From positions 4,311 through 68,310 of the forward strand of contig JBLMWC010000066.1 in the NCBI GenBank assembly GCA_050257015.1: DNA of 64,000 nucleotides. Reading direction: 5' to 3'. Below the pieces are notes generated by a model. That model worked only from the letters and a program-made list of their open reading frames with translations. It was not told the DNA's origin and did not search any database. The stretch is from Bacillota bacterium. Lineage in GTDB: Bacteria > Gemmatimonadota > Gemmatimonadetes > Gemmatimonadales > GWC2-71-9. A program made the position numbers and the translations under genes. Below are positions 14,582 to 43,205 of this stretch, piece after piece. Within the stretch, counting starts at the first letter, position 1, and each line of letters opens with the position of its first letter.

Positions 14582-14666
14582 CGCACGTCGCGGCAGCCCG
14601 GGAGCCCGAAGGCCATGATGAGCGGACGATTGGCACGATCACACCAACCGGAAGGCGGGAGGAACC

Positions 14667-24507: not shown

Positions 24508-24959
24508 TCCTCGACCTTGACGTGGCCCTTCATCCCCAGCGCCGCGTGGGGATCGCACTGGAAGTAGAAGGTCCCTTCACCGAACGTGAGCGGGATATCG
24601 ACCGTCTGCCCGGGGAGCTGGAGGAGGTCGCTCGCCGGCGGCAGGTTCGACCGGCCCGGATTCGAGTCCGCCAGGAAGTGCACGTTGTGCACGCCGACCT
24701 GGAGCGTGAACCGCAGGATGTCACCCTTCTTCGCCTCGATCTCGGCGGGCGAGAAATAGTTGCCCTTCTCGTCGGTGATCAGGTTGATGACGATCACCTT
24801 CCCGGCCGGGGCGGCTTCGTGCTCCTCGTGCTGCTCCTCCTGCTTCGCCTCTCCCTTTTCATGCTCGGCGCCCTCTTTGCCGCCGCAGGCGGCCAGGCCG
24901 AGCGTGGAAAGCGTACCGGCCACGAACAGGAAGCGCCGGGCGATGGATCGCGATGTCAT
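24504..24959 (-). CDS. cupredoxin (plastocyanin/pseudoazurin-like type-1 copper) lipoprotein
   Basis: ORF 24504..25292 trimmed to ATG 24959. Lipobox LGLAAC. Glu/His-rich linker. T1Cu ligand pattern VHNVHF...FQCDPHAALGM (C-x2-H-x4-M). Confidence 0.8.
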   Translation of the reverse strand: MTSRSIARRFLFVAGTLSTLGLAACGGKEGAEHEKGEAKQEEQHEEHEAAPAGKVIVINLITDEKGNYFSPAEIEAKKGDILRFTLQVGVHNVHFLADSNPGRSNLPPASDLLQLPGQTVDIPLTFGEGTFYFQCDPHAALGMKGHVKVED

Positions 24960-24994
24960 GTGGTTCCTCGTGAAGGTGAAATAGGTCCTGCGTA

Positions 24995-25792
24995 TCAGAA
25001 ATCCTTGCGGGCAAAGGCGCGCGCCGCCAGTCCCAGAGGCGCCACCACCCAGACCAGCAGTGCCCCGACCGCGATCGCCGTCCCCCGCGCGCTTCCGAAG
25101 AACTGCTGGAAGACGGCCCCGGTGTACCCGAGGAGCGCCGCCACGTCGAAGCGGAGGAGCAGCACCACCCGGGCCAGGTCCACCGGATTGGCCAGCATCG
25201 CGCCCAGCATCGGACGCTCGAGCGGATAGTCGGCGAAGGTGGAGACGAGGAGGAGCACCACCGCGTCGTAGACCACGGCGGTGAGGAGCCACACGCCGAT
25301 CGCCACCCCCAGTCCCTTGAGCCGGTCATCGGCGCGCACCGCAATGAGCAGCGCGATCGCCCCGAAGACGAGCGTCAGCAGCGTGCCGATCCCCAGCACG
25401 GCGAGGAGGGTGCCGGCGGCGTCGGTGGCGCCGTGCACCGCGAACGGAATCGCCACGCCCGCCACGAATCCGAGCGCCAGCGGGCCGACCAGTCCGGCGT
25501 AGAGCCCGCCGAAGACGGCGCGCCGGCGGACCGGCTGCGCGAGGATCAGCTCCACGAACTCCCGGGCGTTGTAGAGGTACATCGTGCCGAAGACGATGGT
25601 GACCAGCGGGACGATGAAGAGGACGACGTCCACGAGACTCAGAAGCGCGCGGCTCCCGCCGCCGCCGAAGCGGAAGAGGGCGTCGGTCAGCACGAGGAAG
25701 AAGAGCGCGTAGGCGATGAGCCAGCGGCTCCGCGCCACGTCGCGCATCTGGTAGCCCGCCACCCGCCGCATCGCGGCGGCACCCCCGATCAT
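24995..25792 (-). CDS. nosY: NosY, ABC-2 type permease of the nos cluster
   Basis: Six-helix hydrophobic protein. ATGA overlap with the nosF stop. Position and order in the nos cluster support the call. Confidence 0.8.
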   Translation of the reverse strand: MIGGAAAMRRVAGYQMRDVARSRWLIAYALFFLVLTDALFRFGGGGSRALLSLVDVVLFIVPLVTIVFGTMYLYNAREFVELILAQPVRRRAVFGGLYAGLVGPLALGFVAGVAIPFAVHGATDAAGTLLAVLGIGTLLTLVFGAIALLIAVRADDRLKGLGVAIGVWLLTAVVYDAVVLLLVSTFADYPLERPMLGAMLANPVDLARVVLLLRFDVAALLGYTGAVFQQFFGSARGTAIAVGALLVWVVAPLGLAARAFARKDF

Positions 25793-26499
25793 GCAGCCTC
25801 CCGGATCATGAGCTGCGCGATGGCGCGCTCCAGGTTGACCTGATGGGTGCGCCGCTTGAGCTCGTCGAGCGGCCCCGCGAAACGAATCTTGCCGTCCAGC
25901 AGCACGGCGACGTCGTCGGCCAGCTCCTCGAGCTCGCTCATGATGTGCGACGCGATCACCACGGTGCGGCCGCCGGCGCGCTCGAGCGTGATCTTGTCCT
26001 TCAGGATGCTGCTCGAGATCGGATCGAGCCCGGCGGTCGGCTCGTCGAGAATCATCAGGTCCGGCGCGAAGAGGAATGCCATCACGGCGTTCACCTTCTG
26101 GCGCGTGCCGCCGGAGAGGGTCCGGAGCGGCTTGTCGAGCTGCGGCTCGAGGCCCAGCAGATGGATCAGCGTCTCGTCGGGCGCCGCGCCAGCGCCGCGA
26201 AGTCTGGTCAGCAGCTCCAGCAGATGCCGGGCCGAGAGATTCTCGGGGAATCGCGCGATCTGGGGCATGTATCCTATGCGGGCGCGCCAGGCGCCGTCGG
26301 GCGTCGTCGGCCGGCCGTCCAGCATGATCCGCCCGCGGTCGGGATGGGTGAGGCCGAGCATGATCTTGATCAGCGTCGTCTTGCCGGCGGCGTTGGGGCC
26401 GACGACCGCCGTGACCCGCCCTGGCCGGACGCTCAGATCGAGCCCGTCGAGGACGGTGAGACTCCCGAACGTCTTGGAGACCCCGACGACGTCGATCAT
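25789..26499 (-). CDS. nosF: NosF, ABC transporter ATP-binding protein
   Basis: Walker A GPNAAGKTT, signature LSGGTRQK and Walker B LMILDEPT. ATGA overlaps on both sides. Confidence 0.85.
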   Translation of the reverse strand: MIDVVGVSKTFGSLTVLDGLDLSVRPGRVTAVVGPNAAGKTTLIKIMLGLTHPDRGRIMLDGRPTTPDGAWRARIGYMPQIARFPENLSARHLLELLTRLRGAGAAPDETLIHLLGLEPQLDKPLRTLSGGTRQKVNAVMAFLFAPDLMILDEPTAGLDPISSSILKDKITLERAGGRTVVIASHIMSELEELADDVAVLLDGKIRFAGPLDELKRRTHQVNLERAIAQLMIREAA

Positions 26500-27743
26500 C
26501 GGCCGCCCTCCGGTCGGGGACGGACGAACGGGCGCATCGCCGGCCGCTCGTCGGCCAGCGTCTCCGGCGTCAGGACCGGGAGCGCGCGCTCCGCGACGTC
26601 CAGCACGCGGACGAACACGCTCCGGAGCAGGAGCAGCGACGGCTCGTTGTGCTCCACGATGAGCGAGAAGAGCCGGACGGGACGGTGCGGCACATCCCCG
26701 TAGCCGTCCCGGCCGAGATCGTAGCCGTGGTACTGGTCCCAGTAGTTGCCGGCGAAGATGCTGGAGGTCTCGCGGCTGTTCGTGGTCACGTCGAAGGTAT
26801 TCCCGATGAAGTTGTTGCCGCTGAAGCGCGCGTCGGCCGAGCTGGCGGTGAGCCGGACGGCCCAGCCGTCCTCGATGAAATCGTTGTCGCGCGCCTCGAG
26901 GCGGTTGGCCCCTTCGGCCACGAGCCCGATGGTGTTCCGCGCGAACCGGTTCCCGATCACGCGGCTGTCGCTCATCTCCTTGAGGAGGAGCCCGTACGCC
27001 GCGCTGCCCCAGCTCTCCTCGAAGCGGTTCGCGACCATCTCGACGTGGCTCGAGTACATCACCGCGACGCCCGACCCGTTGGCGCGGAAGAGGTTGCTCC
27101 GGTAGTGGCAGCCGTCGGAATACATGAAGTGGAGGCCATAGCGCAGGTTCCGCTCGCTGGTGTTGCCGCGGATCTCGCTCCCCCGCACGAACTCGAAGTA
27201 GATCCCGTCACGAAAGCCGGTGATCGTGTTGCTCTCGATGGTGACCGAATCCGACGACCAGAGGTGGATCCCGTTGCCCGAGCCGATCTCGGTGCGGCCC
27301 GCCGCGCTCAGCACGTTCCGCGCGATGCGGCAGTGGGTGCTCCGGGCGAGGTAGATCCCGAAGAACCCGTTCTCGACCCGGTTGTCCTCGATCACGCATC
27401 CCCGTACACCGACCGCCTTGACCGCCGCCCGGTCCTGCGTAAAGCTCGCCCCGACGTTGCGGAAGACGAGGCCGCGCACCGTCACGTCGTCGGCCGTGAT
27501 CGTCATGAGCTGCCGCCCGCCCTCGCCGTCGAGGATCGCGCCGCTGTCCCCCGCGATTTCGACCGCACGAGTCACCTGGATCGTCGGCTCGCGGTAGACA
27601 CCGGCCCGCACGACGATCCGGCCGCCGGCCGGCGCGAGCGCGAGCCCCTCGGTGATCGTGCGCACCGGTCCCGACGGCGAGACCACGACGGCCGGCCTCC
27701 CGGACACCTGAAGCAGCGCGAGGATCGGGACGAGTGCCATCAT
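26496..27743 (-). CDS. nosD: NosD, periplasmic right-handed beta-helix copper-processing protein
   Basis: ORF 26496..28073 trimmed to ATGATG 27743 (ATGA overlap with the nosL stop). It has a signal peptide. The repetitive N-x-I/V-x-x-N beta-helix pattern is present (IEDNRVENGFFGIYL, IESNTITGFRDGIYF ...). Confidence 0.85.
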   Translation of the reverse strand: MMALVPILALLQVSGRPAVVVSPSGPVRTITEGLALAPAGGRIVVRAGVYREPTIQVTRAVEIAGDSGAILDGEGGRQLMTITADDVTVRGLVFRNVGASFTQDRAAVKAVGVRGCVIEDNRVENGFFGIYLARSTHCRIARNVLSAAGRTEIGSGNGIHLWSSDSVTIESNTITGFRDGIYFEFVRGSEIRGNTSERNLRYGLHFMYSDGCHYRSNLFRANGSGVAVMYSSHVEMVANRFEESWGSAAYGLLLKEMSDSRVIGNRFARNTIGLVAEGANRLEARDNDFIEDGWAVRLTASSADARFSGNNFIGNTFDVTTNSRETSSIFAGNYWDQYHGYDLGRDGYGDVPHRPVRLFSLIVEHNEPSLLLLRSVFVRVLDVAERALPVLTPETLADERPAMRPFVRPRPEGGR

Positions 27744-28186
27744 GGCGTGCGCGCCCCCGGCGCCGGAAGCCCCTCGCGCTGCACCATCGCCAGCACGTCG
27801 GACCAGCCGAGGGTGCCGTCGGCCGCGGCGCTGAGGCCGAGTCCCATCGGGCTGTTGCCTTCGGCATCCGGCGCGGCGCGGCGGAAGCGCGCGCGCTCCG
27901 CCGGCACCAGCCGGTCGTCCTGGGTCACCCAGAGGGACCGGGTGGCGGCGCGGTTCGCCAGATGGTAGGAGGCCAGGCATTCGATCGAGTCGAACGCGTA
28001 CACCTTGCCCTTCACCGTGATCAGCTCCGCTCCGTAGCGGGGATCGCTCACCGTCATGCTGCAGAACGCGCAAACGTCCCGGTCATAGGCGATCGGCCGG
28101 GGGCCCGGCGCGGCACAGGCCCCCAATAGCAGCGCGGCCGCGCACCGTCCGCGGCCGGCCACCGTACGGAACGCCGAGCGTGTCAT
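27740..28186 (-). CDS. nosL: NosL copper chaperone lipoprotein
   Basis: ORF 27740..28531 trimmed to ATG 28186 (ATGA overlap with the upstream stop). Lipobox LLLGAC. DVCAFCSMTVSDPRYGAELI is a typical NosL core. Confidence 0.8.
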   Translation of the reverse strand: MTRSAFRTVAGRGRCAAALLLGACAAPGPRPIAYDRDVCAFCSMTVSDPRYGAELITVKGKVYAFDSIECLASYHLANRAATRSLWVTQDDRLVPAERARFRRAAPDAEGNSPMGLGLSAAADGTLGWSDVLAMVQREGLPAPGARTP

Positions 28187-28821
28187 CCGTGCCCCGTCAC
28201 GCGACGCCGGCGGAAGGCGAGCACGACCGCCACCACCACGAGCGCGAGCGACGCTCCCGCGGCCCAGCCGCCAAGCCCGGGCCAGGACGACGCGGTGAAG
28301 TTGAGCAGCTGCTTCGACCCGATGAGCGGCGGCTGGTAGCTCATGCCGGGAATCTTGATGATCGCCTGCGTCATGTCGAGGTTGTGCCCGTAGTCGTACT
28401 CCCATTTCCAGAAGTCCACGAGCCCCGCCACCGCGGTCGCCACGTACGCCACCGCCCACAGTACCAGCAGCCGGCGGCGGCCCGCCAGCGCGGTGATCAG
28501 CCCTCCCGCGATCAGCGCCGCCACAATCCACGGCATGTAGCGCAGCTCGGGAATCGTGTCGGGATGGATCGTCTTCATCCCGATGTAGTGATTGAGGCCG
28601 TTGATGTTGTCGATGTCGGTCGGCGTCACGCCCGTGACGGTGTTCACCCGGATGTGCATGCCGAGCCCCTCGGGGTACTGGGGCGCGACCAGACGGACAT
28701 TCCAGAGCGGCGATACGTACACCACGGCGAGCAGGAGCGCTGCGAGGGCCGCGAGGAGTCTCGGGCCGCGCCCGAGGCGGGTGCGTACCTGCACCGCCTC
28801 GCGCGCGTCCGCCCGCTCCAT
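28183..28821 (-). CDS. integral membrane protein in the position of clade II NosB
   Basis: ORF 28183..29043 trimmed to ATG 28821, 17 nt after the nosZ stop. There are 4 hydrophobic helices with a large loop. The call is made from synteny with published clade II nos clusters, not from motifs. Confidence 0.55.
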   Translation of the reverse strand: MERADAREAVQVRTRLGRGPRLLAALAALLLAVVYVSPLWNVRLVAPQYPEGLGMHIRVNTVTGVTPTDIDNINGLNHYIGMKTIHPDTIPELRYMPWIVAALIAGGLITALAGRRRLLVLWAVAYVATAVAGLVDFWKWEYDYGHNLDMTQAIIKIPGMSYQPPLIGSKQLLNFTASSWPGLGGWAAGASLALVVVAVVLAFRRRRVTGHG

Positions 28822-28838
28822 GCCCAGCGGGACCGTGG

Positions 28839-30872
28839 TCACTGCGGCGCTCCGTTGCCGGGCGCGGTCGGGATGTGCTGCATCCGGGCCACCTGGCTCG
28901 CCGCGCGCGCGCTCACGTTGGCGGTCAGCGGGACATTGGAGCCCGCCGGCGACACTCGCGCATACCCCGCCATCTCCTGGTGCAGCGCCGAGCAGAAGTC
29001 GGTGCAGTAGAAGGGATAGACTGCCGGCGTCTGGGGCACCCACTTGATGGTGCGCGTCTCACCCGGCGGGATCACCATGTTGGAGTTCTGCGCGCCCATC
29101 ACCGCGAACCCGTGCACGATATCCCAGTCCTGATCGATGTTGGTCACGTGGAAGTACACCGTGTCACCGACCTGGATCCCGGCAAGGTTGTCCGGCGCGA
29201 AGTGACTGCGGATCGCGATCATCTTCACGTCCACCCGATGTCCCTTCCGGGTGATGCCGCCGTCGGACTCCGCCTTCGTCACATACGGCGTCGTCGCCTC
29301 GGACAGCTTGAAGAACTTCACCTGGCGCTCCTTGATGATGCTCGCCGGGATCGCCTGGGCGTAGTGCGGCTCGCCGGCGGTCGGGAAGTCGAGGAGCATC
29401 TTCATCTTGTCGCCGCTGATGTCGATCAGCTGCGCCGACTGCGCGAGCTCGGGGCCGGTCGGGAGGTAGCGATCCTTCGTGATCTTGTTGAGCGCGACCA
29501 CGTACTGGCCCCACGGCTTCCGGCTGTCGCCGCCCGGTATCATCAGGTGGCCGACCGAGTAGTACACCGGGATCCGGTCCACGACCTCCCAGGTGCCCAG
29601 CTTCCACTTCACGATCTCGGACGAGATGAACATCGAGGTGTAGGCGTAGCCCTTGCCGTCGAACTCGGTGTGCAGCGGGCCGAGCCCCGGCTTCTGCACC
29701 TCGCCGGCGATGGTAGCCGCATACTTGAGGACCGGAATGCCGTCCACGATCGTGTCGATCTGCTTCGCCTCGATCGCCTTCAGCATCTTCGAGAACGAGT
29801 GCACCGGAATGACCGTCGCGAGCTTGCCGCTGGCCACGATGTATTCGCCGGTCGGATCGACGTCCACGCCGTGCGGGGACTTCGGGGTCGGCATGTAGTA
29901 GACCACCCCTTCACAATCCTTCGGATCGATCATCCGGACGCTCGTCTTCCGCTCGGTGCTCGCGATCCGCGTCGAGGGATCGGTGTAGTTGTGCGTGTAG
30001 TTCACCGGCACCGTCTTCGCCTTCCCCTCGTTGAGACACGCCTCCGCACGGCGGTAGTTGACCGCCGCGACGTAGTCCTTGTCGTTCTGCGAGGAGTTGA
30101 GCTCCTGCTTGGTGTAGGCCTGCTCGGTGTTGTACGAGCTGAAGAAGAACCAGCCGTCCGACGGCCCCTTGCCGGCATGGCCGAGATCGTAGTTGTAACC
30201 CGGCATCAGGATCTGGAACGCGATGTCCATCTTGCCGGGCTGATCGGCGGTGATGAACGACAGCGTGCCGCGGAAGTTCTGCTTGTAGCTCTCGATCGGC
30301 ACGTCGGTGTTGGGCACCGGCACGCTGAACCGCGTCGCCGAGACGATGTACTTGGTGTTCGGCGTCGTGAACGGAGACGCATGGCCGCCGGCCGAGTTGG
30401 GGATCTCGAGGATCTCGTCGGTCTCGAAGCGGGTCAGGTCGATCCGCGCGACTCGCGGCGTATTGTTGCCGTTGATGAACAGCCAGCGCCCGTCGGGAAC
30501 GCCGTCGGTCTGCGACAGCTCGGCGTGGTGACTGTCATCCCAGGGGACGAAGCCGCGCGTCGTCTCCAGCATCGGCTTCGTCTCTTCCGTGTAGCCGTAG
30601 CCGTTCTCGGGGAACTGCGAGAAGACCGGGATCGTCTTGAGCAGCCGCCCCGAGGGGAGGCCGTAGACGGTCACCTGGCCGCTGAAGCCGCCCGACAGGA
30701 AGGCGTAATAGGCGTCGTACGAACCCGGCGCGACGTAGACCTTCGACGCCGCGTCTCCCATGACGAGATTGGGCTGCGGCCCGCCGGCGCGGCAGGCGAA
30801 GAGCAACCCGGCGGCCACCAGGGTGGAGGCCAGACCGACGGTGACCGTGCGAGTCAGCTTGTTTCGTGGCAT
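28839..30872 (-). CDS. nosZ: nitrous-oxide reductase, clade II (Sec-type)
   Basis: 677 aa. CuA site FYCTDFCSALHQEM (C-x3-C-x3-H-x2-M) lies at the C-terminus. WDDSHH CuZ-type histidines sit in the propeller. The N-terminus has no twin-arginine. Confidence 0.95.
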   Translation of the reverse strand: MPRNKLTRTVTVGLASTLVAAGLLFACRAGGPQPNLVMGDAASKVYVAPGSYDAYYAFLSGGFSGQVTVYGLPSGRLLKTIPVFSQFPENGYGYTEETKPMLETTRGFVPWDDSHHAELSQTDGVPDGRWLFINGNNTPRVARIDLTRFETDEILEIPNSAGGHASPFTTPNTKYIVSATRFSVPVPNTDVPIESYKQNFRGTLSFITADQPGKMDIAFQILMPGYNYDLGHAGKGPSDGWFFFSSYNTEQAYTKQELNSSQNDKDYVAAVNYRRAEACLNEGKAKTVPVNYTHNYTDPSTRIASTERKTSVRMIDPKDCEGVVYYMPTPKSPHGVDVDPTGEYIVASGKLATVIPVHSFSKMLKAIEAKQIDTIVDGIPVLKYAATIAGEVQKPGLGPLHTEFDGKGYAYTSMFISSEIVKWKLGTWEVVDRIPVYYSVGHLMIPGGDSRKPWGQYVVALNKITKDRYLPTGPELAQSAQLIDISGDKMKMLLDFPTAGEPHYAQAIPASIIKERQVKFFKLSEATTPYVTKAESDGGITRKGHRVDVKMIAIRSHFAPDNLAGIQVGDTVYFHVTNIDQDWDIVHGFAVMGAQNSNMVIPPGETRTIKWVPQTPAVYPFYCTDFCSALHQEMAGYARVSPAGSNVPLTANVSARAASQVARMQHIPTAPGNGAPQ

Positions 30873-30981
30873 GTGAGTTCGGCGTGACGCCGCGTTGAGT
30901 GATTTCGCATCCGCGTATGATCAATTGTATCGGCGGCACCATGAAGGAATTCTGAAAATCCTCACAGGATGCCTTGAATCC

Positions 30982-31938
30982 TCAGGCCCGATGCACCGCC
31001 ATCGCGCGGCGCGCCGAAGCGGGCCGCTGCTCCGCCGGCGGCCGGCAGACGAGCACGGGGACTTCGGCGCCGCGCACCAGCTTGTCCACCACGCTGCCCA
31101 GCAGGAACCGGCGGAATCCGCCGACGCCATGGCTGGTCACCACGATTGCGTCCACCCGCTCGCGCCGGGCCTCTTCCAGGATCTCGATGGCCGGGTTGCT
31201 CGCGATCCGCACCGCCGTGCGGGCCCGGGCGCCCAGGCGCCGGACGTGTCGGGCCACCCGCTCGAGGTACGCGCGGGTGGTGTCCTGCAGCTCGTTGTCG
31301 ACCGCGACGTCCGGAATCAGCCCGAACGGCAGCGGCGCCACTTTCATTAGAGGACTGGGATCGATCACGCTGACCAGGAGGCACTCGCCTTCCTCCTCCA
31401 GCAACTCCCGCGCGGCGAGCACCGCGTGCTCCGCCACCGGCGACTGGTCGAGCGGGACGAGGACCCGGCGGAAGTGCACCGGATGCGCGCCCGGCTCATC
31501 GCTCGCGCGAAGCATGAGCACCGGCGTGGCGACGGTGCGCACGAGCCCGTCCGCCACGCTCCCGAGCCAGAGCCGTCCCACCGCGCCGCGGCCGTGCGTC
31601 GTCATCACCACGAGGTCGACGTGCGCCCCGTGGATGTGCGCCGCGAGGGTGTCCACCACGGGCCCGGACAGGTGATGCGACGCGACCCGGAGGTCGTGGT
31701 CGGCGTGCACCCGCTCGGTGACGCGGCGGAGATAGACCGTTTCATCTTCCAGCTGGACCTTGTCGAGCTCGCCGAAATCGACGGCGGCCGGCGCCGCGGC
31801 GAGCGCGGAGGCGACGGAGACATGCACCAGCGCGAGCTCGAGATCGGCGCCCGTCCGCTGGGCGATGGCGACGGCCACCGGCAGCGCCTCTTCGGCGGCG
31901 AGCGAGCCGTCGAGCGGCACGAGGATGCGGTTGTACAT
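30982..31938 (-). CDS. tandem universal stress protein (two UspA domains)
   Basis: ORF 30982..32400 trimmed to ATG 31938 (MYNRILVPLDGS). Two repeats of the USP pattern end in G..G..R...GSV......PVL. Confidence 0.85.
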   Translation of the reverse strand: MYNRILVPLDGSLAAEEALPVAVAIAQRTGADLELALVHVSVASALAAAPAAVDFGELDKVQLEDETVYLRRVTERVHADHDLRVASHHLSGPVVDTLAAHIHGAHVDLVVMTTHGRGAVGRLWLGSVADGLVRTVATPVLMLRASDEPGAHPVHFRRVLVPLDQSPVAEHAVLAARELLEEEGECLLVSVIDPSPLMKVAPLPFGLIPDVAVDNELQDTTRAYLERVARHVRRLGARARTAVRIASNPAIEILEEARRERVDAIVVTSHGVGGFRRFLLGSVVDKLVRGAEVPVLVCRPPAEQRPASARRAMAVHRA

Positions 31939-31952
31939 GGATCCTCCCTGGA

Positions 31953-32816
31953 TCAGAACGGGACGGTCAGCACCGAACAGGCGGCGCTGTGCGTGAGACG
32001 GCGGGCGATGCTCCCTGCCTCGATGACTCCGGGCGGGCCGCCGCGATGGAATCCGAGCACGATCGCGTCGGACCCCGTCTCGGCGGCGGCGGTGATCAGC
32101 GAGTCGACGATCGGGCCGCGCCGAACCATCAGCGCGTCGGGTACGTGGCCCGCCGGCTCGCAATCGGCGAGCTGGGCGATCGTCTCCCGGAGGGCGTCGC
32201 TCCGGCCGGACGGGATCAGCTCGGCGAGCTCGGGCGGCTCGTCGGGACGCACCGGCTCGACGGTGACCGCGCGGAGCGTCGCCGACACCGCCTTGGCGAA
32301 GTCGCACGCCGCCCGGAGGACGGTGAGTCCCCGGCGCGACCCGTCGAGGGCGACGAGGACGTGCTCGGGCGCGGGACTCCCGAGCGGGACGAAGAGGCAC
32401 GGCGTCCGGCTCCGGCGCGCGACCGCATCGGCGGTGTCGCCGACCAGGAGCCGCGTCGCCTGCGAGCGCTGCTTCCGGCCCACCACGATGAGGTCAACCT
32501 GGTGATCATCGGCAAAGCGGCAGATCTCGACGCCCGGGATCCCGAAGGTCACGCCCAGACCGACCGAATGGACCGGCGGCGCCGCGCGGACCTCGGGGTC
32601 CATCCACTGCTCCAGCCGGGCGAGCACCGGCCCGCTGCTCGCGGCCGGATCGCCGCTCACCAGGGCGGGCACCGGAGAGGTGGCGTGCTGCGCCGGGATG
32701 GTGGTCATGACGGTGACGCGCGCGCCGGCCCGGTTGGCCAGCGTCAACGCAACGCGGAGAGCACTCCGCGCCGTATCGGATTGATCGGTCGCTACCAGGA
32801 CATGCCGCAGTTGCAT
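31953..32816 (-). CDS. tandem universal stress protein (two UspA domains)
   Basis: MQLRHVLVATDQS...VVGRKQRSQATRLLVGDTADAVARRSRTPCLFV, then a second USP half ending GSIARRLTHSAACSVLTV. Confidence 0.85.
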   Translation of the reverse strand: MQLRHVLVATDQSDTARSALRVALTLANRAGARVTVMTTIPAQHATSPVPALVSGDPAASSGPVLARLEQWMDPEVRAAPPVHSVGLGVTFGIPGVEICRFADDHQVDLIVVGRKQRSQATRLLVGDTADAVARRSRTPCLFVPLGSPAPEHVLVALDGSRRGLTVLRAACDFAKAVSATLRAVTVEPVRPDEPPELAELIPSGRSDALRETIAQLADCEPAGHVPDALMVRRGPIVDSLITAAAETGSDAIVLGFHRGGPPGVIEAGSIARRLTHSAACSVLTVPF

Positions 32817-32909
32817 GGGGTCTCCTTCGATGACACGAGGATGGCCCCACCGGCGTGAAGGAAGAATGAAGAGGTACCGAAGGTTTCTTGGTGAGCGTAG
32901 ACTTGAGGC

Positions 32910-34148
32910 ATGCCGACTGCATTGGAGAGGCCGAACACGCCGCAGTGGCGGCTGGAGCAGCTGGTTACCGCCGGGACGCTCCTGGCCTCCGAGCTCTCAC
33001 TCGAAGGGGTGCTCCAGCGTGTAGTCGAGATCGCGGTCGACGTGATCGGCGCCAGGTACGCGGCGATCGGCGTGCTCGGGCCCGATGGCCGGACGCTCGA
33101 GAGCTTCACCACCATGGGGCTGTCGGAGGAGGAACAGGCCGCGATCGGCCCGCCGCCGCGGGGCCACGGCATCCTCGGCCTGGTGATCCGCGTCGGGAAG
33201 CCGATCCGCCTGGCCAACCTCGGCGAGCACCCCGACTCGTACGGTTTCCCCCCCAACCATCCGCCCATGACCTCGTTCCTCGGCGTGCCCATCACGGGAC
33301 GGCGGGGCACCTTCGGGAACCTCTATCTCACCGAGAAGATCGGCGGGCCGGAGTTCACCGACGTGGACGAGTACGTGGCCCGGCTGCTGGCCGCCCAGAC
33401 GGCGGCGGCGGTGGAGAACGCGCGGCTCCACGAGGAAAGCGCCCGGCTGCTGGAGGAGGTGCAGCAGCTCCAGCGCACCCGGGAGCGGTTCTTTGCGATG
33501 GTCAACCACGAGCTCAGGAACGCACTGGCCGGGGTCTATGGCTGGGCCGAGATGCTGGTACGGAAGAAGGACCCGGCGAGCGTGCCCCGTGCCGCCTTCG
33601 AAGTGCTCGATTCAGCCGAGCAGGCGATCGGGCTGATCAACGATCTCCTCGACCTGAGCCGGCTCGACGAAGACCGGCTGAAGCCGGCGATGCGCGCGGT
33701 CGAGCCGGCTGGCGTCGTCCGGCGCTCGATCGGCCGCGTCACCCCGGCCGCGCAGGCACGGAACGTCACCATCCGGGCCGACCTGCCGCCGGGCCTCCCG
33801 AGCTGCCAGACCGACGCGAGCCGCGTCGAGCAGATCCTGATCAACCTGACGGTGAACGCCGTGCGTCACACCCCCGAGAACAGTGAGGTGTGCATCAGCG
33901 TACGGCACCAGGACAAGCGGCTGCTCTTTCAGGTGGACGACCAGGGGCCGGGAATCTCGGAGAGCGAGATCGAGCGCATCTTCGACATCTACGTCACCAA
34001 GGCGGGCGAAGCGCAGGAGGGAGTGGGACTTGGCCTTCCGTTGTCGCGTCGGCTGGCCCGGCTCCTGGGCGGAGAGCTCCGGGCCGTCGCGAACCCCGGA
34101 GGCGGTGGCCGGTTCCTCCTCGAGCTGCCAGCCGCCGACACAGGATAA
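32910..34148 (+). CDS. soluble GAF-domain sensor histidine kinase (DevS/DosT-like GAF + HisKA + HATPase_c)
   Basis: No TM segment. The GAF carries ARYAAIGV, EHPDSYGFPPNHPPMTSFLGVP and FGNLYLTEK. H-box FFAMVNHELRNAL. The N and G boxes are LINLTVNAVRHT, DDQGPGI and GVGLGL. Confidence 0.85.
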   Translation: MPTALERPNTPQWRLEQLVTAGTLLASELSLEGVLQRVVEIAVDVIGARYAAIGVLGPDGRTLESFTTMGLSEEEQAAIGPPPRGHGILGLVIRVGKPIRLANLGEHPDSYGFPPNHPPMTSFLGVPITGRRGTFGNLYLTEKIGGPEFTDVDEYVARLLAAQTAAAVENARLHEESARLLEEVQQLQRTRERFFAMVNHELRNALAGVYGWAEMLVRKKDPASVPRAAFEVLDSAEQAIGLINDLLDLSRLDEDRLKPAMRAVEPAGVVRRSIGRVTPAAQARNVTIRADLPPGLPSCQTDASRVEQILINLTVNAVRHTPENSEVCISVRHQDKRLLFQVDDQGPGISESEIERIFDIYVTKAGEAQEGVGLGLPLSRRLARLLGGELRAVANPGGGGRFLLELPAADTG

Positions 34149-34204: not shown

Positions 34205-34897
34205 ATGCGGATACTCGTCGTCGAAGACGACCGGAAGGTCGCGGGCTTCATTGAACAGGGATTGAAGGAGGAAGGACACGCGGTGGACGTCGCCCCCGAC
34301 GGGGACGAGGCCACGATGTTGGCGCATGTCTACGACTACGACGTCATCCTGCTCGACGTCGTGCTGCCGAAGAAGAACGGCTTCCAGATCGCCGCCGAGC
34401 TGCGCCGGGAGGGCCGGGCGACCCCGATCCTCATGCTCACCTCGCTCGACTCCCCCGAGGATGTCGTGCGGGGCCTCGACGCCGGCGCGGATGATTACCT
34501 CGCCAAGCCCTTCCGCTTCGACGAGTTGCTGGCGAGGATCCGCGCGCTCCACCGCCGGGGCGGCGCCGCCCGGCTCGACGTGCTGCGCTACGGACAGCTC
34601 ACCCTCGACCGGCTCCGCCACATCGCCGCGATCGACGGGCACACCCTCGATCTGACGCCACGCGAATTCCAGCTCCTCGAGTACTTCCTCCTTCATCCCG
34701 ACGAGGTCGTCCGCCGCACCACGCTGCTCGAGAAGGTGTGGGACATGCACTTCGATCCCGAGAGCAACGTGGTGGACGTCCATGTCGGGAACCTGAGGCG
34801 CAAGCTCGAGCGCGCCGCTGGCGGTCCCGTTATCGCGACTGTCCGCGGCGTCGGGTTTACGCTGCGGGGCGGGGCCACGGCCGCAGGCAGCGCATGA
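34205..34897 (+). CDS. OmpR/PhoB-family response regulator
   Basis: Receiver domain MRILVVEDD...DVILLDVVLP...LMLTS..GADDYLAKPF. C-terminal winged-helix LTPREFQLLEYFL...VDVHVGNLRRKL. Confidence 0.9.
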   Translation: MRILVVEDDRKVAGFIEQGLKEEGHAVDVAPDGDEATMLAHVYDYDVILLDVVLPKKNGFQIAAELRREGRATPILMLTSLDSPEDVVRGLDAGADDYLAKPFRFDELLARIRALHRRGGAARLDVLRYGQLTLDRLRHIAAIDGHTLDLTPREFQLLEYFLLHPDEVVRRTTLLEKVWDMHFDPESNVVDVHVGNLRRKLERAAGGPVIATVRGVGFTLRGGATAAGSA

Positions 34898-36813
34898 CCC
34901 GCCGCGTGCCGGCGGCCGTGCTCCCGACCGGCGCGGCACTCGCCATCCTCGCCGGCCTCGTCGCCCAGCTCGGCTTCCGGGACGCGGCCGCCGCGCACGC
35001 CATCTGGCGGGTCAGTCTCTTCATCACCGCGGCACCGCTCCTCTGGCGCCTCGCCCGCTCGGTGCGGGGCGGTCAGTTCGCCACCGACATCGTGGCGTCG
35101 CTCGCCATCGTCGGCGCCATCCTCCTCGATCATCCCCTCGCGGGTCTCGTCATCGTCCTCATGCAGTCGGGCGGCGAGTTCCTGGAGGTCTACGCCGCCG
35201 GCCGCGCCTCCCGCGCGGTGCGCGCCCTGGAGGAAGCGGCGCCCCGCATCGCGCACCGCCTCACCGCGGGCCGCGCCGAGGACATCACCGTCGACGCGAT
35301 CGTCCCGGGCGACGAACTGGTCGTCCGCCCCGGCGAGATGGTTCCCTGCGACGGGATCGTCGTCGCGGGCGAGTCGCATGTCGATACGTCGAGCATCACC
35401 GGCGAGCCGACACCGGTCCGGACGATCGCGGGGGCCGCCTTCCCCAGCGGCAGTCTCAACCTCGAAGGGCCGTTCACCCTGCGCGCCACCGCCGCGGCCG
35501 CCGAGAGCCAGTATGCCCGGATCGTAGACCTGGTGCGATCGGCGCAGGAGCAGAAGGCGCCGATGCAGCGGCTGGCCGACCGGTACGCGGTCTGGTTCAC
35601 GCCGGTCACCCTCGCCGTCTGCCTCCTCACCTGGCTCGTCTCGCACGATCCGGTGCGCGTGCTCGCCGTGCTGGTGGTCGCCACGCCGTGCCCCCTCATC
35701 CTCGCCACGCCGGTGGCGCTGATCGGCGGGATCAATCTCGCCGCGCGCCGGGGGATCATCTTCCGCTCGGGCACCGCGCTCGAGCACCTGGGCCAGGTGA
35801 CGGCGGCGATTTTCGACAAGACGGGCACGCTGACCGTTGGTCATCCGAAGGTGAAGACGGTCCGCGCTGTGGCGCCGTGGACCGAGCCGGAGGTCCTGCG
35901 CTTCGCGGCGTCGGTCGAACAGGGCTCGGGGCATCTGCTCGCGCGCACGGTGGTGGACGCGGGCCATGGCGCCGGGCTGGAACTGAGTGAGCCGCGCGGC
36001 GTGGTCGAGGAGCCGGGTCGGGGGGTGTCGGGGCAGGTCGACGGGCGGACGGTCAGCGTCGGCGCGCGGTCGTTCATTACCGAGTATCATCCGCAAAGCC
36101 GGGCCGCGGTCCAGGAGATGTCGGCCGATCACGGCACCAACCTTCGCGCCTACGTCGCGATAGACGGCGACCTCGCGGGAGCGGTGGACTATGCCGATCG
36201 CCTGCGGCCCAACCTCGACGTGCTGCTGGCGGAGCTCCGCGCCGCGGGGGTCGGCCGGATGTTCCTGCTGTCGGGGGACATTCAGGCCAACGCGGACGCG
36301 GTGGCCGAAGCGGTCGGCATCCCCATCGCGCGCGGCGACCTGAAGCCGGCGGACAAGGTCGCCACGGTGCGGTCGCTGCTGGCCGAGGGCGAGCGCGTGC
36401 TGATGGTCGGTGACGGGACCAACGACGCCCCCGCCCTGAGCGCCGCGACGGTCGGCGTCGTGCTCGCCGCGCACGGCGGAGGCATCGCCGCAGAGGCGGC
36501 GGACGTCGTGCTGCTGGCCGACGATCCGGCGCTGGTCGCCACCGGCATCGCCATCAGCCGCCGGTCGATCCGGATCGCCCGGCTCAGCATCTGGGTCGGG
36601 CTGGGCCTCAGCGGCGCCGCGATGGCGGCCGCCGCGGCCGGCTACGTGCCGCCGACCCTTGGCGCGATACTTCAGGAAGCGATCGACATCGCCGCAATCT
36701 TCAACGCACTCCGCGCGGCCGCGCCGTACCGCGGCCTCGCCCGTGCGATCGGCGCCGTACCGCATGTGCCGCAGCCTGAGCTGTTCCACGCCCAGACGGA
36801 GACGCCGGCCTGA
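34894..36813 (+). CDS. P1B-type heavy-metal-translocating ATPase without N-terminal metal-binding domain, TPCP transmembrane motif
   Basis: ORF 34738..36813 trimmed to ATG 34894 (ATGA overlap with the regulator stop). Motifs TGEP, ATPCPLILATP, DKTGTLT and GDGTNDAP are present. There is no CxxC domain. Confidence 0.9.
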   Translation: MTRRVPAAVLPTGAALAILAGLVAQLGFRDAAAAHAIWRVSLFITAAPLLWRLARSVRGGQFATDIVASLAIVGAILLDHPLAGLVIVLMQSGGEFLEVYAAGRASRAVRALEEAAPRIAHRLTAGRAEDITVDAIVPGDELVVRPGEMVPCDGIVVAGESHVDTSSITGEPTPVRTIAGAAFPSGSLNLEGPFTLRATAAAAESQYARIVDLVRSAQEQKAPMQRLADRYAVWFTPVTLAVCLLTWLVSHDPVRVLAVLVVATPCPLILATPVALIGGINLAARRGIIFRSGTALEHLGQVTAAIFDKTGTLTVGHPKVKTVRAVAPWTEPEVLRFAASVEQGSGHLLARTVVDAGHGAGLELSEPRGVVEEPGRGVSGQVDGRTVSVGARSFITEYHPQSRAAVQEMSADHGTNLRAYVAIDGDLAGAVDYADRLRPNLDVLLAELRAAGVGRMFLLSGDIQANADAVAEAVGIPIARGDLKPADKVATVRSLLAEGERVLMVGDGTNDAPALSAATVGVVLAAHGGGIAAEAADVVLLADDPALVATGIAISRRSIRIARLSIWVGLGLSGAAMAAAAAGYVPPTLGAILQEAIDIAAIFNALRAAAPYRGLARAIGAVPHVPQPELFHAQTETPA

Positions 36814-37253
36814 TGCCCCGACCCTATCCCCACTTCCGTGAGCTGACCCGCGCCGAGGCGGAAGAGGTGCTCGCCCGCAACCACGTGGGCCGTCTGGCAT
36901 TCGTGGACCACGAGCAGGTCGACATCGAGCCGATCCACTACGTCTTCGCCAACGGCGCGATCCACGGCCGCACCGCGGCCGGCACCAAGCTCCACGCGCT
37001 CGCCCATCAGCCGTGGGTGGCACTGGAGACCGACGAGATCGAAGGGCTGTTCAACTGGCGGAGTGTGGTGGTCCGGGGGACCGTCTACAAGCTCGACCCC
37101 GCGCTGGACGAGAAGGATTACGCCGAGAGCGTTGAGATCATCCGCGGTCTCGTTCCGGAAGCACTCGCAGCCGAGGACCCGACACCGAGCCGTGACATCG
37201 TCTTCCGCATCTACCTCGGCGAGATCAACGGCCGCGCGGCCGACGACCGCTGA
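36813..37253 (+). CDS. pyridoxamine 5'-phosphate oxidase-family (FMN-binding split-barrel) protein
   Basis: 146 aa. EAEEVLARNHVGRLAFVDHEQVDIEPIHYVFANGAIHGRT...WRSVVVRGTV is the typical family pattern. The start shares 1 nt with the ATPase stop. Confidence 0.7.
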   Translation: MPRPYPHFRELTRAEAEEVLARNHVGRLAFVDHEQVDIEPIHYVFANGAIHGRTAAGTKLHALAHQPWVALETDEIEGLFNWRSVVVRGTVYKLDPALDEKDYAESVEIIRGLVPEALAAEDPTPSRDIVFRIYLGEINGRAADDR

Positions 37254-37271
37254 GACCCACACGGAGGCATC

Positions 37272-37766
37272 ATGGACTACTTCTTCTCTGCGACGCACCT
37301 CCATCTGATGCTCAACCACGTGCCGGTCCTGGGCACGATCTTCGTCTTCATCCTGCTCGTGTGGGGGCTGGTGCGGCGTTCCCGGGAGATCACGTCGCTG
37401 GGACTCCTCTTCACGGTGATCCTGGCGCTCGTCACGATCCCGATCTATCTCACCGGTGAGCCGACCGAGGAGGCGCAGGAGCACGCGCCGTGGTTCGACA
37501 AGAAGCGGGGGAACGAGCACGAGGAGAAGGCGGAACGGGGACTGATCGCGGTGCTGGTGACCGGGGCGGTGGCGCTCGGCGCGCTCTGGCTCCGGCGCGG
37601 GGGGCGGCCGGGCAACGGGGCCGTCACCGGTGTTGCGGTCGCGGCGCTGGGCGTGAGCGCGGCGCTTTTCGCGCTCGCCGCGCTCGAAGGCGGGCAGATT
37701 CACCACGAGGAGCTTCGCCCGGGCGCGGCCGTCACGGCGCCGGGACCGGAGGGCGATTCGGATTGA
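37272..37766 (+). CDS. four-helix membrane protein of unknown function (possibly DUF2231-like)
   Basis: ATG start. Helices are THLHLMLNHVPVLGTIFVFILLVWGLV, LGLLFTVILALVTIPIYL, IAVLVTGAVALGALWL and VAVAALGVSAALFALAAL. GC3-rich. Confidence 0.6.
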   Translation: MDYFFSATHLHLMLNHVPVLGTIFVFILLVWGLVRRSREITSLGLLFTVILALVTIPIYLTGEPTEEAQEHAPWFDKKRGNEHEEKAERGLIAVLVTGAVALGALWLRRGGRPGNGAVTGVAVAALGVSAALFALAALEGGQIHHEELRPGAAVTAPGPEGDSD

Positions 37767-37774
37767 GGTGTTCC

Positions 37775-38200
37775 ATGCGTAGCGCAGTCATGATCGGCGT
37801 GCTGGCGCTGCTCGCGCCGGTCCCGGCGGTGGCGCAGGCGACGGCTGACGTTCCCAGCCGGCTCGAGCTTGCCGACTCGTCGCTGGCACTGGGAAAGCGG
37901 CTCTACGACGGCGCAGGCAACTGCGCCTTCTGCCACGGCGCCGCGGGCGTGGGCACGAGCCGCGGCTCCGACCTGACCGACGACGTCTGGCGGCACGGCG
38001 ACGGCGGTTACCTCTCGATAGTCGAGCAGATCGTCCACGGCGTCGGCCACCCGACCGGCGGTCCGGTGACGCCGATGCCGAGCCGCGGGATGGGACCGCT
38101 CACCTATACCCAGATGCGGGCAGTGGCGGCGTACGTCTGGAGCCTGAGCCACCGCGTCCCTCGGGACAGCGTGACCCCCGCGCCCCGCCGGCGCCGCTGA
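37775..38200 (+). CDS. periplasmic mono-haem c-type cytochrome
   Basis: ORF 37490..38200 trimmed to ATG 37775. Signal peptide MRSAVMIGVLALLAPVPAVAQA. Haem motif CAFCHG, with a distal Met candidate in PVTPMPS. Confidence 0.75.
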   Translation: MRSAVMIGVLALLAPVPAVAQATADVPSRLELADSSLALGKRLYDGAGNCAFCHGAAGVGTSRGSDLTDDVWRHGDGGYLSIVEQIVHGVGHPTGGPVTPMPSRGMGPLTYTQMRAVAAYVWSLSHRVPRDSVTPAPRRRR

Positions 38201-38222: not shown

Positions 38223-39290
38223 CTAGGCGACCGGCGAGCCCTTCTCCACGATCAGCACCGTCACCATCCCGAACATCCCGTGGTCCGTCTCGGCATGGGC
38301 CAGGATGTGGCAGTGGAACGCCCAGGTACCGGGGTTGGTCGCCTTCACCAGAACATCCCACCGCTCGCCCGGCGCGATGTTGAGCGTGTCGCACTTCCAG
38401 GGTGCCGGCTGATCCCATCCGTCCTTCGCGATCACCGTCATGTGCATCCCGTGGAGGTGCATCGGGTGGATCATCATCCCCTCGTTCATGAAGCGGATGC
38501 GCACCGTCTGACCCTGCTTCGCCACGATCGGCTCGGTGGCGGGAAACCCCTTGCCGTTGAGCGTGAAGCCGTGCGGGCCGTCGTTCAGCACCATCACGTA
38601 GTCCACATCCACCTTCGGCTCGCGCGAGCGGTCCTTCGGCTCGACGATGAAGGCACCGAGCAGACCCTTCGACACCTGGGTGGTGGAGTTGTGATGCGAG
38701 TGGTACATGTGGGAGCCGGCGTTCGGCACGGTGAACTCGTAGGTGTACGTCTCGCCCGGCTTGATCGGCGGCTGCGTGATGAACGGCACCCCGTCCTGGT
38801 CGTTGGGCAGCTCGAGGCCGTGGAAGTGGATCGCGGTGGACTGCTCCAGCCGGTTGGTGAGGTTCACGCGCACCCGGTCGCCCTCGCGGACCCGGATCTG
38901 CGGGCCGGGCACCTGCCCGTTGTACGCCCATGCCTTGGCATGCTGACCCGGCGCGTATTCCCAGTCGATCTCGGTCGCGGTGAGGTCGAACACCTTGACA
39001 CCTCGCTCCATCCGCGGCGCCATCGGCAGGTTCCCCCGCCCCGCCGTCTTCGCCGGAAACGCCTTGATTCCCTTCTCGTGCATCGCGTCCATCGCGTCAG
39101 CCCGCTCACGGACCGTCAGGATGGGCGCGGCCGGCCGGGCTGGAGCCGACGGGGGCGTGGCGGCGACCGCCTTGTTGTCGGTGCAGGCTGAGAGCGCCGA
39201 GACCACGGGGAGCGTGAGTGCGGCGGCGGCCCCTTTCGCGAGAAAGTCGCGGCGGGACCGGGCGGCGGTGATCAGGGTGTTGTCGGACAA
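38223..39290 (-). CDS. small (about 355 aa) Tat-exported multicopper oxidase
   Basis: All four Cu motifs are present: IHFHG, HMYHSHH, HPMHLHG and HCHILAHAETDHGM. Tat motif SRRDFL. Preferred start is TTG 39290, with AGGAG 8 nt upstream. The ORF track start at 39347 is also TTG. Confidence 0.85.
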   Translation of the reverse strand: MSDNTLITAARSRRDFLAKGAAAALTLPVVSALSACTDNKAVAATPPSAPARPAAPILTVRERADAMDAMHEKGIKAFPAKTAGRGNLPMAPRMERGVKVFDLTATEIDWEYAPGQHAKAWAYNGQVPGPQIRVREGDRVRVNLTNRLEQSTAIHFHGLELPNDQDGVPFITQPPIKPGETYTYEFTVPNAGSHMYHSHHNSTTQVSKGLLGAFIVEPKDRSREPKVDVDYVMVLNDGPHGFTLNGKGFPATEPIVAKQGQTVRIRFMNEGMMIHPMHLHGMHMTVIAKDGWDQPAPWKCDTLNIAPGERWDVLVKATNPGTWAFHCHILAHAETDHGMFGMVTVLIVEKGSPVA

Positions 39291-39488
39291 GGGGATCTCT
39301 CCTCTGCGTGCGATGAAGGGCTGACGGTCGCCGGGGAGTCTATCCAAAGCCGGATGAAGGGCGGGTTTAGGTGCCGTGAAGCATTCTTCATAACTGTCAG
39401 GGCAGGCGCGGACGCACTATCTTTCCCGGTCGCGCGCGGCGCATCGGAGAGCGCGCACGGTCAGTCCCCGAGTCGCTCGGAGTGGTCC

Positions 39489-43205
<3,717 letters not shown>

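Follow-up and report, generated by a model that had tools for sequence, protein, structure and literature searches.

The closest described relatives of the sensor treated here are the kinases DevS and DosT of Mycobacterium tuberculosis, in which a proximal histidine ligates the haem and a distal tyrosine serves as the hydrogen-bond partner required for ligand discrimination (PMC4082495). Whether the oxy form autoxidises or is stable is said to depend on one further position, Glu87 in DevS and Gly85 in DosT; both kinases are activated by NO and CO as well, and a role as redox sensor has been argued for DevS (PMC4082495). The hypoxia/DosR gene set of the organism includes hspX, ctpF, Rv2623, Rv2626c and the universal stress protein (USP) gene Rv3134c, which lies beside devRS (PMC4082495). 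Here we analyse a sensor histidine kinase gene at positions 32910..34148 (+ strand) of a 64,000-nucleotide stretch of DNA from a soil member of the Gemmatimonadales (contig JBLMWC010000066.1; hereafter the window), together with its adjacent response regulator, a promoter box predicted to be bound by that regulator and the nearby cluster for nitrous oxide reductase (nosZ). We consider it rather probable that the locus encodes a cytoplasmic haem gas-sensor two-component system of the Gemmatimonadales that controls a hypoxia-survival regulon, into which nosZ has been recruited in this lineage.

The likeness to DosT/DevS–DosR begins with the GAF domain, which is 50% and 45% identical to GAF-A of DosT and DevS, respectively, and carries the proximal His, the distal Tyr and the DosT-type Gly in the same columns. 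It extends to a soluble kinase, to a USP gene beside the system and to a predicted regulon rich in USPs, Hsp20, CBS, P-type ATPase and trehalose phosphatase genes. The differences lie mostly behind the sensor. DosT and DevS carry GAF-A and GAF-B and a dimerisation/phosphoacceptor (DHp) domain of the HisKA_3 type, whereas the kinase described here has a single GAF and a DHp of the HisKA type (PF00512); its partner is an OmpR-type winged-helix protein, unlike the NarL/LuxR-type DosR, and the predicted binding site is a triple direct repeat where that of DosR is a palindrome. The phylum, Gemmatimonadota, is a different one, and nosZ is among the predicted targets. By its predicted domains, the kinase as a whole lacks three defining DevS/DosT features, namely GAF-B, HisKA_3 and a NarL-type partner, and the system would, by analogy, be DosT-like at its input end and PhoR/PhoB-like at its output end.

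With PhoR/PhoB the system shares a HisKA kinase paired with a Response_reg/Trans_reg_C regulator, and the predicted box resembles the pho box in that direct repeats with an 11-bp period stand in place of the -35 element and stop some 12 nt short of the -10 element. It differs in its input, a cytoplasmic GAF domain predicted to bind haem, in the repeat itself (TGAAG, in three copies) and in having no apparent link to phosphate. Proteobacteria also possess haem-based (FixL/FixJ) or O2/NO-responsive (FNR/NNR/NosR) routes by which N2O reduction is turned on when O2 falls; FixL, however, is a haem-PAS protein and FixJ a NarL-type regulator, and FNR and NNR belong to the CRP family and use palindromic boxes, whereas here no FNR box precedes nosZ, the cluster contains no nosR and nosZ is of clade II. 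In a literature coverage that was incomplete, we found no published description of this wiring, of the box or of any nosZ regulator of the Gemmatimonadota; PMC12154584 and PMC11537054 proved unrelated to the wiring.

Results

A DosT-like GAF domain on a HisKA kinase

The kinase gene encodes 412 residues comprising one DevS/DosT-type GAF domain, a long signalling helix, a HisKA DHp domain and HATPase_c. In the Pfam scan, GAF_2 matched residues 29-169 (2.7e-20), HisKA PF00512 residues 191-254 (4.8e-14, 52.6 bits against a gathering cut-off of 26.9) and HATPase_c residues 302-409 (4.5e-23, above its cut-off), while the same scan returned no match to a second GAF or to HisKA_3 (PF07730). Among the sequences of the PDB searched with phmmer, the top match was GAF-A of DosT (2vzw, E 3.8e-38, covering residues 29-177), followed by entries for GAF-A of DevS (2w3d at 1.5e-33, 2y8h, 2y79 and 4ynr, E ~1e-34) and then by ordinary HisKA cores. 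The BLASTP identities of 50% to DosT and 45% to DevS refer to alignments of 147 residues interrupted by one gap of one residue, and the kinase pairs with DevS in a series of blocks: ARYAAIGV with ARYGAMEV, GHGILGLVIRVGKPIRL with GLGVIGLLIEDPKPLRL, EHPDSYGFPPNHPPMTSFLGVP with a 22-residue DevS block, FGNLYLTEK with FGTLYLTDK, and ENARL with ANARL.

The residues that matter for the haem pocket fall into place in this alignment. Within the GAF domain (32994..33416, +; residues 29-169), His117 of the NHPPM motif (33258..33260, +) shares a column with DevS His149 and DosT His147 (YHPPM and HHPPM), and Tyr139 of GNLYLTEK (33324..33326, +) shares one with DevS Tyr171 and DosT Tyr169 (GTLYLTDK and GNLYLTEK); the two are spaced by 22 residues, as in DevS. 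Gly54 (33069..33071, +) occupies the column of DevS Glu87 and DosT Gly85. All three residues are invariant in 30 family members that were selected blind to the motif. At the level of sequence, the domain agrees with the DevS/DosT haem-GAF family at every point on which it can be compared, and our prediction is a pocket in which His117 ligates a b-type haem, Tyr139 forms the hydrogen bond on the distal side and the channel position is occupied by Gly, as in DosT.

The HisKA dimerisation/phosphoacceptor domain (33480..33671, +) carries the H-box FFAMVNHELRNAL, whose phosphoacceptor His200 (33507..33509) is likewise invariant among the 30 family members, picked without regard to motifs. In an AlphaFold2 model of the kinase (pLDDT 77.8, built without cofactor), one unbroken helix (residues 151-219) runs from the GAF domain into the DHp helix that bears His200, and the model consists of a GAF fold, this long helix and the kinase core and of nothing else. 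Foldseek searches with the full-length model returned bacteriophytochrome kinases and the cores of HK853, ZraS, DivL and RetS, the latter four with target-normalised TM-scores of 0.66-0.75; the list consists mostly of kinase cores and phytochromes and is uninformative on the haem pocket. Model and fold matches agree in fitting a design of GAF domain, signalling helix and HisKA transmitter, and on the model the kinase is soluble and cytoplasmic.

Immediately downstream lies a response regulator of the OmpR/PhoB family (34205..34897, +; 230 residues), in which a receiver domain with Asp51, located within ILLDVVLP, is followed by a winged-helix Trans_reg_C domain (Response_reg 1.8e-28 and Trans_reg_C 5.1e-26 in Pfam, both above their cut-offs). 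Its TGA stop codon overlaps the ATG of the following P-type ATPase gene in an ATGA at 34894..34897. These results bear out a preliminary description of the locus that had been made from the sequence without database searches: it had assigned to the kinase a single N-terminal GAF of the DevS GAF-A type, had taken the His of NHPPM and the Tyr of NLYLTEK as the equivalents of His149 and Tyr171, had called the transmitter HisKA, and had named as its partner an OmpR-type regulator translationally coupled to a P-type ATPase.

A predicted regulator box at the -35 position

Divergent from the kinase gene, across a spacer of 93 nt, lies a gene for a tandem universal stress protein (USPa; 31953..32816, -; two stretches matching Pfam Usp, 1.9e-43). 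About 37 USP/kinase spacers of this kind were aligned and gave the consensus [A/G]TGAAG-N5-[A/G]TGAA[G/A]-N6/7-GAA, in other words TGAAG repeated three times in the same direction every 11 bp. On the strand of the USP gene, the box ends at a fixed distance of 12 nt upstream of a TAnnnT hexamer and therefore occupies the -35 position. A geometry like that of the pho box and a direct-repeat form are what is expected for a dimer or trimer of the OmpR/PhoB family, and from its position and its direct-repeat form we infer that the box is the site of the adjacent OmpR-type regulator.

A 28-nt matrix for the box, trained without the window sequence, has only three matches above 8 bits in the entire 64 kb of the window, all of which are intergenic, correctly oriented and placed before USPa, nosZ and a multicopper oxidase (MCO) gene. 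Box 1 (32855..32882, +; GTGAAGGAAGAATGAAGAGGTACCGAAG; 30.9 bits), with three direct repeats of 11-bp period, lies in the USPa/kinase spacer and has USPa as its predicted primary target; box 2 (30941..30968, +; 21.2 bits) lies in the 109-nt spacer between the second USP gene and nosZ; and the weaker box 3 (39354..39381, +; 17.6 bits) lies directly upstream of the MCO gene. Across 868 kb of Gemmatimonadota loci the matrix gave 88 matches of at least 18 bits, a number that includes the roughly 40-50 sites from which it was built, as against none in shuffled sequence.

On the kinase side of the spacer, a TAGACT at 32898..32903 is the likely -10 element, and the kinase mRNA may be leaderless because this hexamer lies 6 nt before the ATG. 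Kinase orthologues show TACAAT or TAGAAT about 8 nt before the ATG. The MCO box reads CTTCA-N6-CTAAA-N6-CTTCA on the minus strand, followed after 12 nt by TAGACT, and from this box and its -10 element the likely start of the MCO gene is the TTG at 39290, behind GGAGAG. In eight other loci the regions upstream of the MCO gene score below threshold (5-13 bits) with the outer repeats retained as TGAAG-N17-TGAAG.

The box in front of nosZ

Between USPa and nosZ lies a second tandem USP gene (USPb; 30982..31935 with an approximate start, -; two Usp stretches in Pfam), and the nosZ gene (28839..30872, -) is of the Sec-dependent, clade II type, scoring 920.7 bits with TIGR04246 against a cut-off of 625 and failing the Tat-type model with 378 bits (cut-off 625). 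It is followed on the same strand by a NosL-like gene, nosD, nosF, nosY and a cupredoxin gene. Read on the nosZ strand, box 2 has the form TTTCA-N6-CTTCA, 12 nt and TACAAT (30929..30924), and it was also found by an exact-pattern search. Transcription of nosZ would be predicted to begin some 7 nt beyond this hexamer. Its orientation and its 12-nt spacing to a perfect TACAAT are the same as in the promoters on which the matrix was trained. In all, the nosZ genes of six loci belonging to two sub-clades are preceded by the box (the window, L008, L091, L011, L013 and L018, where L numbers denote the loci compared), each with P<=1e-4 in shuffles that preserve local composition, the value for the window being about 1e-4. 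As a control we used 80 independent metagenomic nosZ loci of 67-90% identity, amounting to 760 kb, in which only two matches of at least 17 bits occurred, both of them in L091, the sole control locus with the kinase-USP-USP-nosZ layout.

We rejected nosZ as a general member of the regulon, given that among 74 other nosZ loci the box occurs only in L091, which has the layout of the window. Judged from these promoters, the link to nosZ nonetheless appears real but restricted to lineages in which nosZ stands beside the module, because the box is present where nosZ adjoins the module and missing in 73 of the 74 other loci.

The nosZ promoters of L011 (8571-8598), L013 (8365-8392) and L018 (6331-6358) share an AT-rich element, TTAATCATAT, that overlaps a weaker box, and a second regulator site at this element is possible. 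In the accessory part of the nos cluster in the window (24504..28531), the NosL-like protein has a CxxC-x-M motif and the cupredoxin is of the plastocyanin/azurin type; a membrane-protein reading frame (28183..29043) overlaps the 3' end of nosZ.

Distribution and synteny of the module

The full-length kinase has more than 7,000 relatives, of which the best 120 all combine GAF, HisKA and HATPase_c in about 410 residues and belong to the Gemmatimonadales where named. Among the matches listed from a species-level genome collection, at least about 50 are loci in metagenome-assembled genomes of Gemmatimonadota with 60-81% full-length identity. We compared gene order by tblastn of the window proteins against 51 species-level Gemmatimonadota loci, counting for each gene the loci that could be evaluated. 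The regulator follows the kinase immediately in all 45 loci, a divergent USP gene lies upstream in 34 of 46, and an ATPase of the PCP type stands after the regulator in 25 of 38; an MCO gene occurs within 10 kb in 6 of 41, nosZ directly behind the USP in 4 of 37 and the PNPOx-like gene of the window in a single one of 35. The conserved core thus consists of a divergent USP gene on one side and kinase, regulator and ATPase on the other. Adjacency to nos is the minority state, yet, for a single-copy cluster, far commoner than expected by chance.

In L001 the nos cluster lies on the opposite side of the module and is convergent. In L003 (14658-21245) the module is followed by a cluster for cbb3 oxidase (ccoNOQP, ccoG and a copper ATPase), and in L006 (3603-7292), as in L007, genes for phosphoketolase and acetate kinase lie upstream of it; both neighbourhoods share a low-oxygen theme.

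For the genes on the USP side, the preliminary description had noted two tandem-USP genes leading into nosZ, as we find, and the absence of nosR and of an FNR/NNR box. The latter point holds for the nos cluster, which gave no match to a NosR domain, and for the spacer upstream of nosZ (30873..30981), which has no FNR/NNR-type box, while the count of such boxes across the window is within chance. Its proposal that the kinase is a sensor for N2O respiration or for its metal supply is upheld in part. The box before nosZ supports the nos link; a nos-specific role is at odds with an adjacency in 4 of 37 loci, and the supply of copper does not fit the ATPase, as set out below.

Genes associated with the box in relatives

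USPb-like genes have a box of their own in ten loci (L019, L023, L029, L030, L035, L040, L052, L054, L057 and L078). Beyond these and many further USPs, the genes that carry the box in relatives encode, according to Pfam, Hsp20/alpha-crystallin proteins (L047, L050) and CBS-pair proteins (L045, L050, L053). A BON-domain protein (L021), a phosphoribosyltransferase (L016), the small subunit of a NiFe-hydrogenase (L039), OmpW (L003), an HAD protein together with trehalose-phosphatase (L053), a GH63-like hydrolase (L028), YgaP-like membrane proteins and DUF4142 proteins complete the set. This set resembles the mycobacterial DosR dormancy regulon, a likeness that draws in part on the protein families that we take hspX, ctpF, Rv2623 and Rv2626c to encode.

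In or near the operon, L011 (14300-16200) and L001 (13835-14681) contain genes for small proteins of 137-164 residues that have no Pfam match. The two in L011 have strong boxes (33.2 and 26.1 bits) and share the pattern WxxEAR...W..W..VR; they may constitute a new family of the regulon.

Other wirings of the GAF type

Searched alone, the GAF domain retrieves 1,381 clusters (at 50% identity) with E<=1e-30, among them proteins in which the stretch occurs as many as 13 times. Six of these (P0143, P0150, P0163, P0166, P0207 and P0249) are 2,700-3,500 residues long and contain 10-13 tandem GAF-type stretches; most of the six proteins lack the strict HPPM...Y motif. Among 75 representatives that bear this motif, 43 have HisKA_3 and 15 have HisKA. 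A substantial minority of proteins with this GAF type is therefore coupled to HisKA, and such coupling is not a peculiarity of the locus.

The matches from Gaiellales/Actinomycetota, which cover query residues 9-407, were considered as further HisKA-rewired kinases and dismissed, the example in L070 (Gaiellaceae) being a canonical GAF-GAF-HisKA_3 protein with the H-box ELHDETGQAL and a LuxR-type regulator. Single-GAF kinases with HisKA_3-like H-boxes, recognised by regular expression only, occur in L059, L069, L082 and L086. In L058 (204-3279; Methylomirabilota), the kinase has a DevS-type GAF domain and an H-box resembling that of HisKA, again by regular expression, and it is followed by a regulator of 427 residues which, from its terminal sequences, looks like an NtrC-type protein, and the pair may represent a third wiring class.

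The ATPase and the genes downstream

The gene coupled to the regulator encodes a P1B-type heavy-metal ATPase (34894..36813, +; 639 residues; 502.8 bits with TIGR01525 against a cut-off of 346). Its fourth transmembrane segment (TM4) has the motif ATPCPLILATP, with PCP about 40 residues before DKTGT; Pfam found no HMA domain, and the closest match in the PDB is 7qbz, the nearest solved relative being a P1B-4 pump. PCP is the defining motif of the P1B-5 subgroup, for which a link to Ni/Fe has been made (PMC13460109), and by this motif and its P1B core the ATPase is assigned to the P1B-5 type. Some members of the subgroup bear a C-terminal O2-binding hemerythrin domain (PMC9388753). Such pumps, found in Acidothermus cellulolyticus and as Nia in Sinorhizobium meliloti, resemble the present one in having PCP in TM4, in lacking an N-terminal HMA domain and in being tied to an O2-binding module. 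They differ in that the ATPase at this locus is without a hemerythrin domain, the putative O2-binding module here being a separate haem kinase that would control transcription of the pump. As a copper pump supplying NosZ the ATPase is not supported, because it combines a PCP motif, not CPC, with the absence of an HMA domain, as expected for a P1B-5 (Ni/Fe) protein, and has a P1B-4 pump as its nearest solved relative.

The ATPase gene is followed by a gene for a Pyridox_ox_2 (PNPOx-like) protein (36813..37253, +; Pfam 9.6e-19), whose start shares one base with the stop of the ATPase gene. Related genes are found in L001 and L005; with one occurrence among the 35 species-level loci, we rejected it as a conserved member of the operon. 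A small membrane protein (37272..37766, +; 75% identity in L005) and a c-type cytochrome (~37775..38200, +; Pfam Cytochrom_C) would, from strand and spacing, belong to the same operon. The MCO gene stands beyond these on the other strand (38223..39290, -) and encodes a two-domain, Tat-exported enzyme (Pfam Cu-oxidase_3/_2). MCO genes lie in or near the kinase operon in L005, L011, L017, L026, L031, L042, L044 and L051, in several of them inside it. Relatives of the MCO with 48-56% identity also occur no more than about 3 kb from DevS-like GAF kinases in Actinomycetota and Limnocylindrales/Chloroflexota (L066, L069, L074 and L086), where the neighbouring kinases of L069 and L086 have a HisKA_3-like H-box; this suggests a link between MCO and haem-GAF sensors across phyla.

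Next to the MCO gene, the window (39354..43205) encodes a Kgd-like 2-oxoglutarate dehydrogenase in which E2 acyltransferase and E1 domains are fused, as they are in the orthologue from L005. The mechanically assigned start of this reading frame at 39354 overlaps the MCO promoter box, and the true start is probably further downstream. Elsewhere in the window, the AT skew reaches 0.18-0.19 at 14001..18000, compared with at most 0.1 in the remainder.

Discussion

In the mechanism that we propose, the kinase would be off with O2 bound to its haem and on in the deoxy state, possibly also with NO or CO bound, by analogy with DosT. His200 would then be phosphorylated and the phosphate passed to Asp51 of the adjacent OmpR-type regulator, and the phosphorylated regulator would bind the three TGAAG repeats head-to-tail, 11 bp apart. 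With the repeats at -35, 12 nt upstream of the -10 element in the manner of a pho box, transcription would be activated. Within the window, the targets would be the divergent USP gene or genes, the system's own operon (kinase, regulator, PCP-type ATPase and PNPOx-like protein), nosZ through its own box and, more weakly, the MCO gene. That the regulon would serve survival of hypoxia, analogous to that of DosR, is read from the dormancy-like genes that carry the box in relatives. The physiology of Gemmatimonas agrees with such a scheme: in G. aurantiaca N2O reduction begins once O2 is depleted (PMC9530729), and N2O has been proposed to aid the survival of temporary anoxia (PMC10581226). Taken further, the Gemmatimonadota would possess an equivalent of the DosR regulon run by a re-coupled haem O2 sensor, and in one soil lineage clade II nosZ would have come under its box, so that the loss of O2 from the haem iron directly switches on N2O reduction; this extended reading we offer tentatively, with slightly more doubt than confidence.

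Several observations weigh against these readings. The box is missing from 73 of the 74 evaluable other Gemmatimonadota-like nosZ loci, most of which have negative best scores; nosZ directly follows the USP in merely 4 of 37 species-level loci (L008, L011, L013 and L018), and the nosZ boxes of three of these, L011, L013 and L018, are weaker and set in AT-rich sequence; and the close relative L005 (79% identity) has the exact layout of the window without a nos cluster. At the module's own promoter, the -10 element of USPa in the window is poor (CATCCT), and the likeness to the DosR regulon leans partly on the functions ascribed to the Rv genes. It could be, then, that sensor and regulon are as we describe and nosZ is not controlled at all, the nos cluster having landed beside a mobile USP/two-component module and the match near nosZ being a remnant or belonging to the USP. 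The identical arrangement without nos in L005, the convergent nos cluster on the far side in L001, the nosZ of L089, which starts about 49 nt after a USP without any box, and the 73 boxless loci would all follow from this. A bystander would, however, hardly be expected to have a box in the orientation of the training promoters and at their 12-nt spacing to a perfect TACAAT, nor to show it again in six loci of two sub-clades at P<=1e-4, with zero false positives in the 760-kb control and an adjacency (4 of 37) far above chance; we regard this explanation as unlikely.

The remaining alternatives concern what is sensed. The nearest named subfamily of the regulator is the heavy-metal CopR/CusR/CzcR group, with TIGR01387 (cztR_silR_copR) as its best NCBIfam model (220.1 bits, 2.7e-65), and the operon holds a metal pump, so that a metal-related output has to be reckoned with. 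The system could accordingly serve mainly metal homeostasis of the CopRS/CusRS/CzcRS kind, a cytoplasmic GAF domain having replaced the periplasmic sensor, with ATPase and MCO as output and with a metal or haem/iron, not gases, as signal. The translational coupling of the ATPase to the regulator and its retention in 25 of 38 loci speak for this, as do the recurrent MCO genes in or beside the operon and the related ones beside the DevS-like kinases of L066, L069, L074 and L086. Yet the score of the regulator stays below the family cut-off of 279.2 bits, the sensing domain has 50% identity to a haem O2 sensor of known structure and keeps every key residue, most box-associated genes point to stress and dormancy and not to metals, and the pump lacks a metal-binding domain and has PCP instead of CPC; among the alternatives we give this one the least credence. 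A haem sensor that in the cell responds to NO (or CO), or to the Fe(II)/Fe(III) redox state, instead of O2 is about as improbable as an uncontrolled nosZ. Such a sensor would turn on N2O reduction together with stress protection in response to NO released by denitrifiers nearby. DevS and DosT are activated by NO and CO too, and DevS itself has been argued to sense redox state and not O2 (PMC4082495), which counts against O2 as the signal here as well; moreover, the regulon includes the terminal enzyme of denitrification. The invariant Gly at the position of Glu87, on the other hand, is the DosT state that is linked to a stable oxy complex, the neighbourhoods with cbb3 oxidase (L003) and with phosphoketolase and acetate kinase (L006) fit a limitation of O2, and among the genes that carry the box we found none for NO detoxification. 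We retain a haem O2 sensor with a hypoxia-survival regulon as the preferred reading.

For the family, the comparison implies that the DevS/DosT haem-GAF domain is a portable module found well beyond the Actinobacteria and joined to at least three classes of transmitter and regulator (HisKA_3/NarL, HisKA/OmpR and HisKA/NtrC-like), and that a DosR-like set of dormancy genes can be assembled under a regulator of a different type. For the organisms, its interest lies in nitrous oxide, since bacteria with clade II nosZ, such as the Gemmatimonadota, are considered a major sink of this greenhouse gas in soils. To our knowledge, these bacteria are without the NosR and FNR/NNR circuitry of model denitrifiers. 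The locus offers a proposed circuit in steps, from a haem O2 sensor through an OmpR-type regulator and a 28-bp box to the nosZ promoter, with residues and sites named for each. What switches on clade II nosZ in non-denitrifiers would thereby become directly addressable, for a sub-lineage and from sequence evidence.

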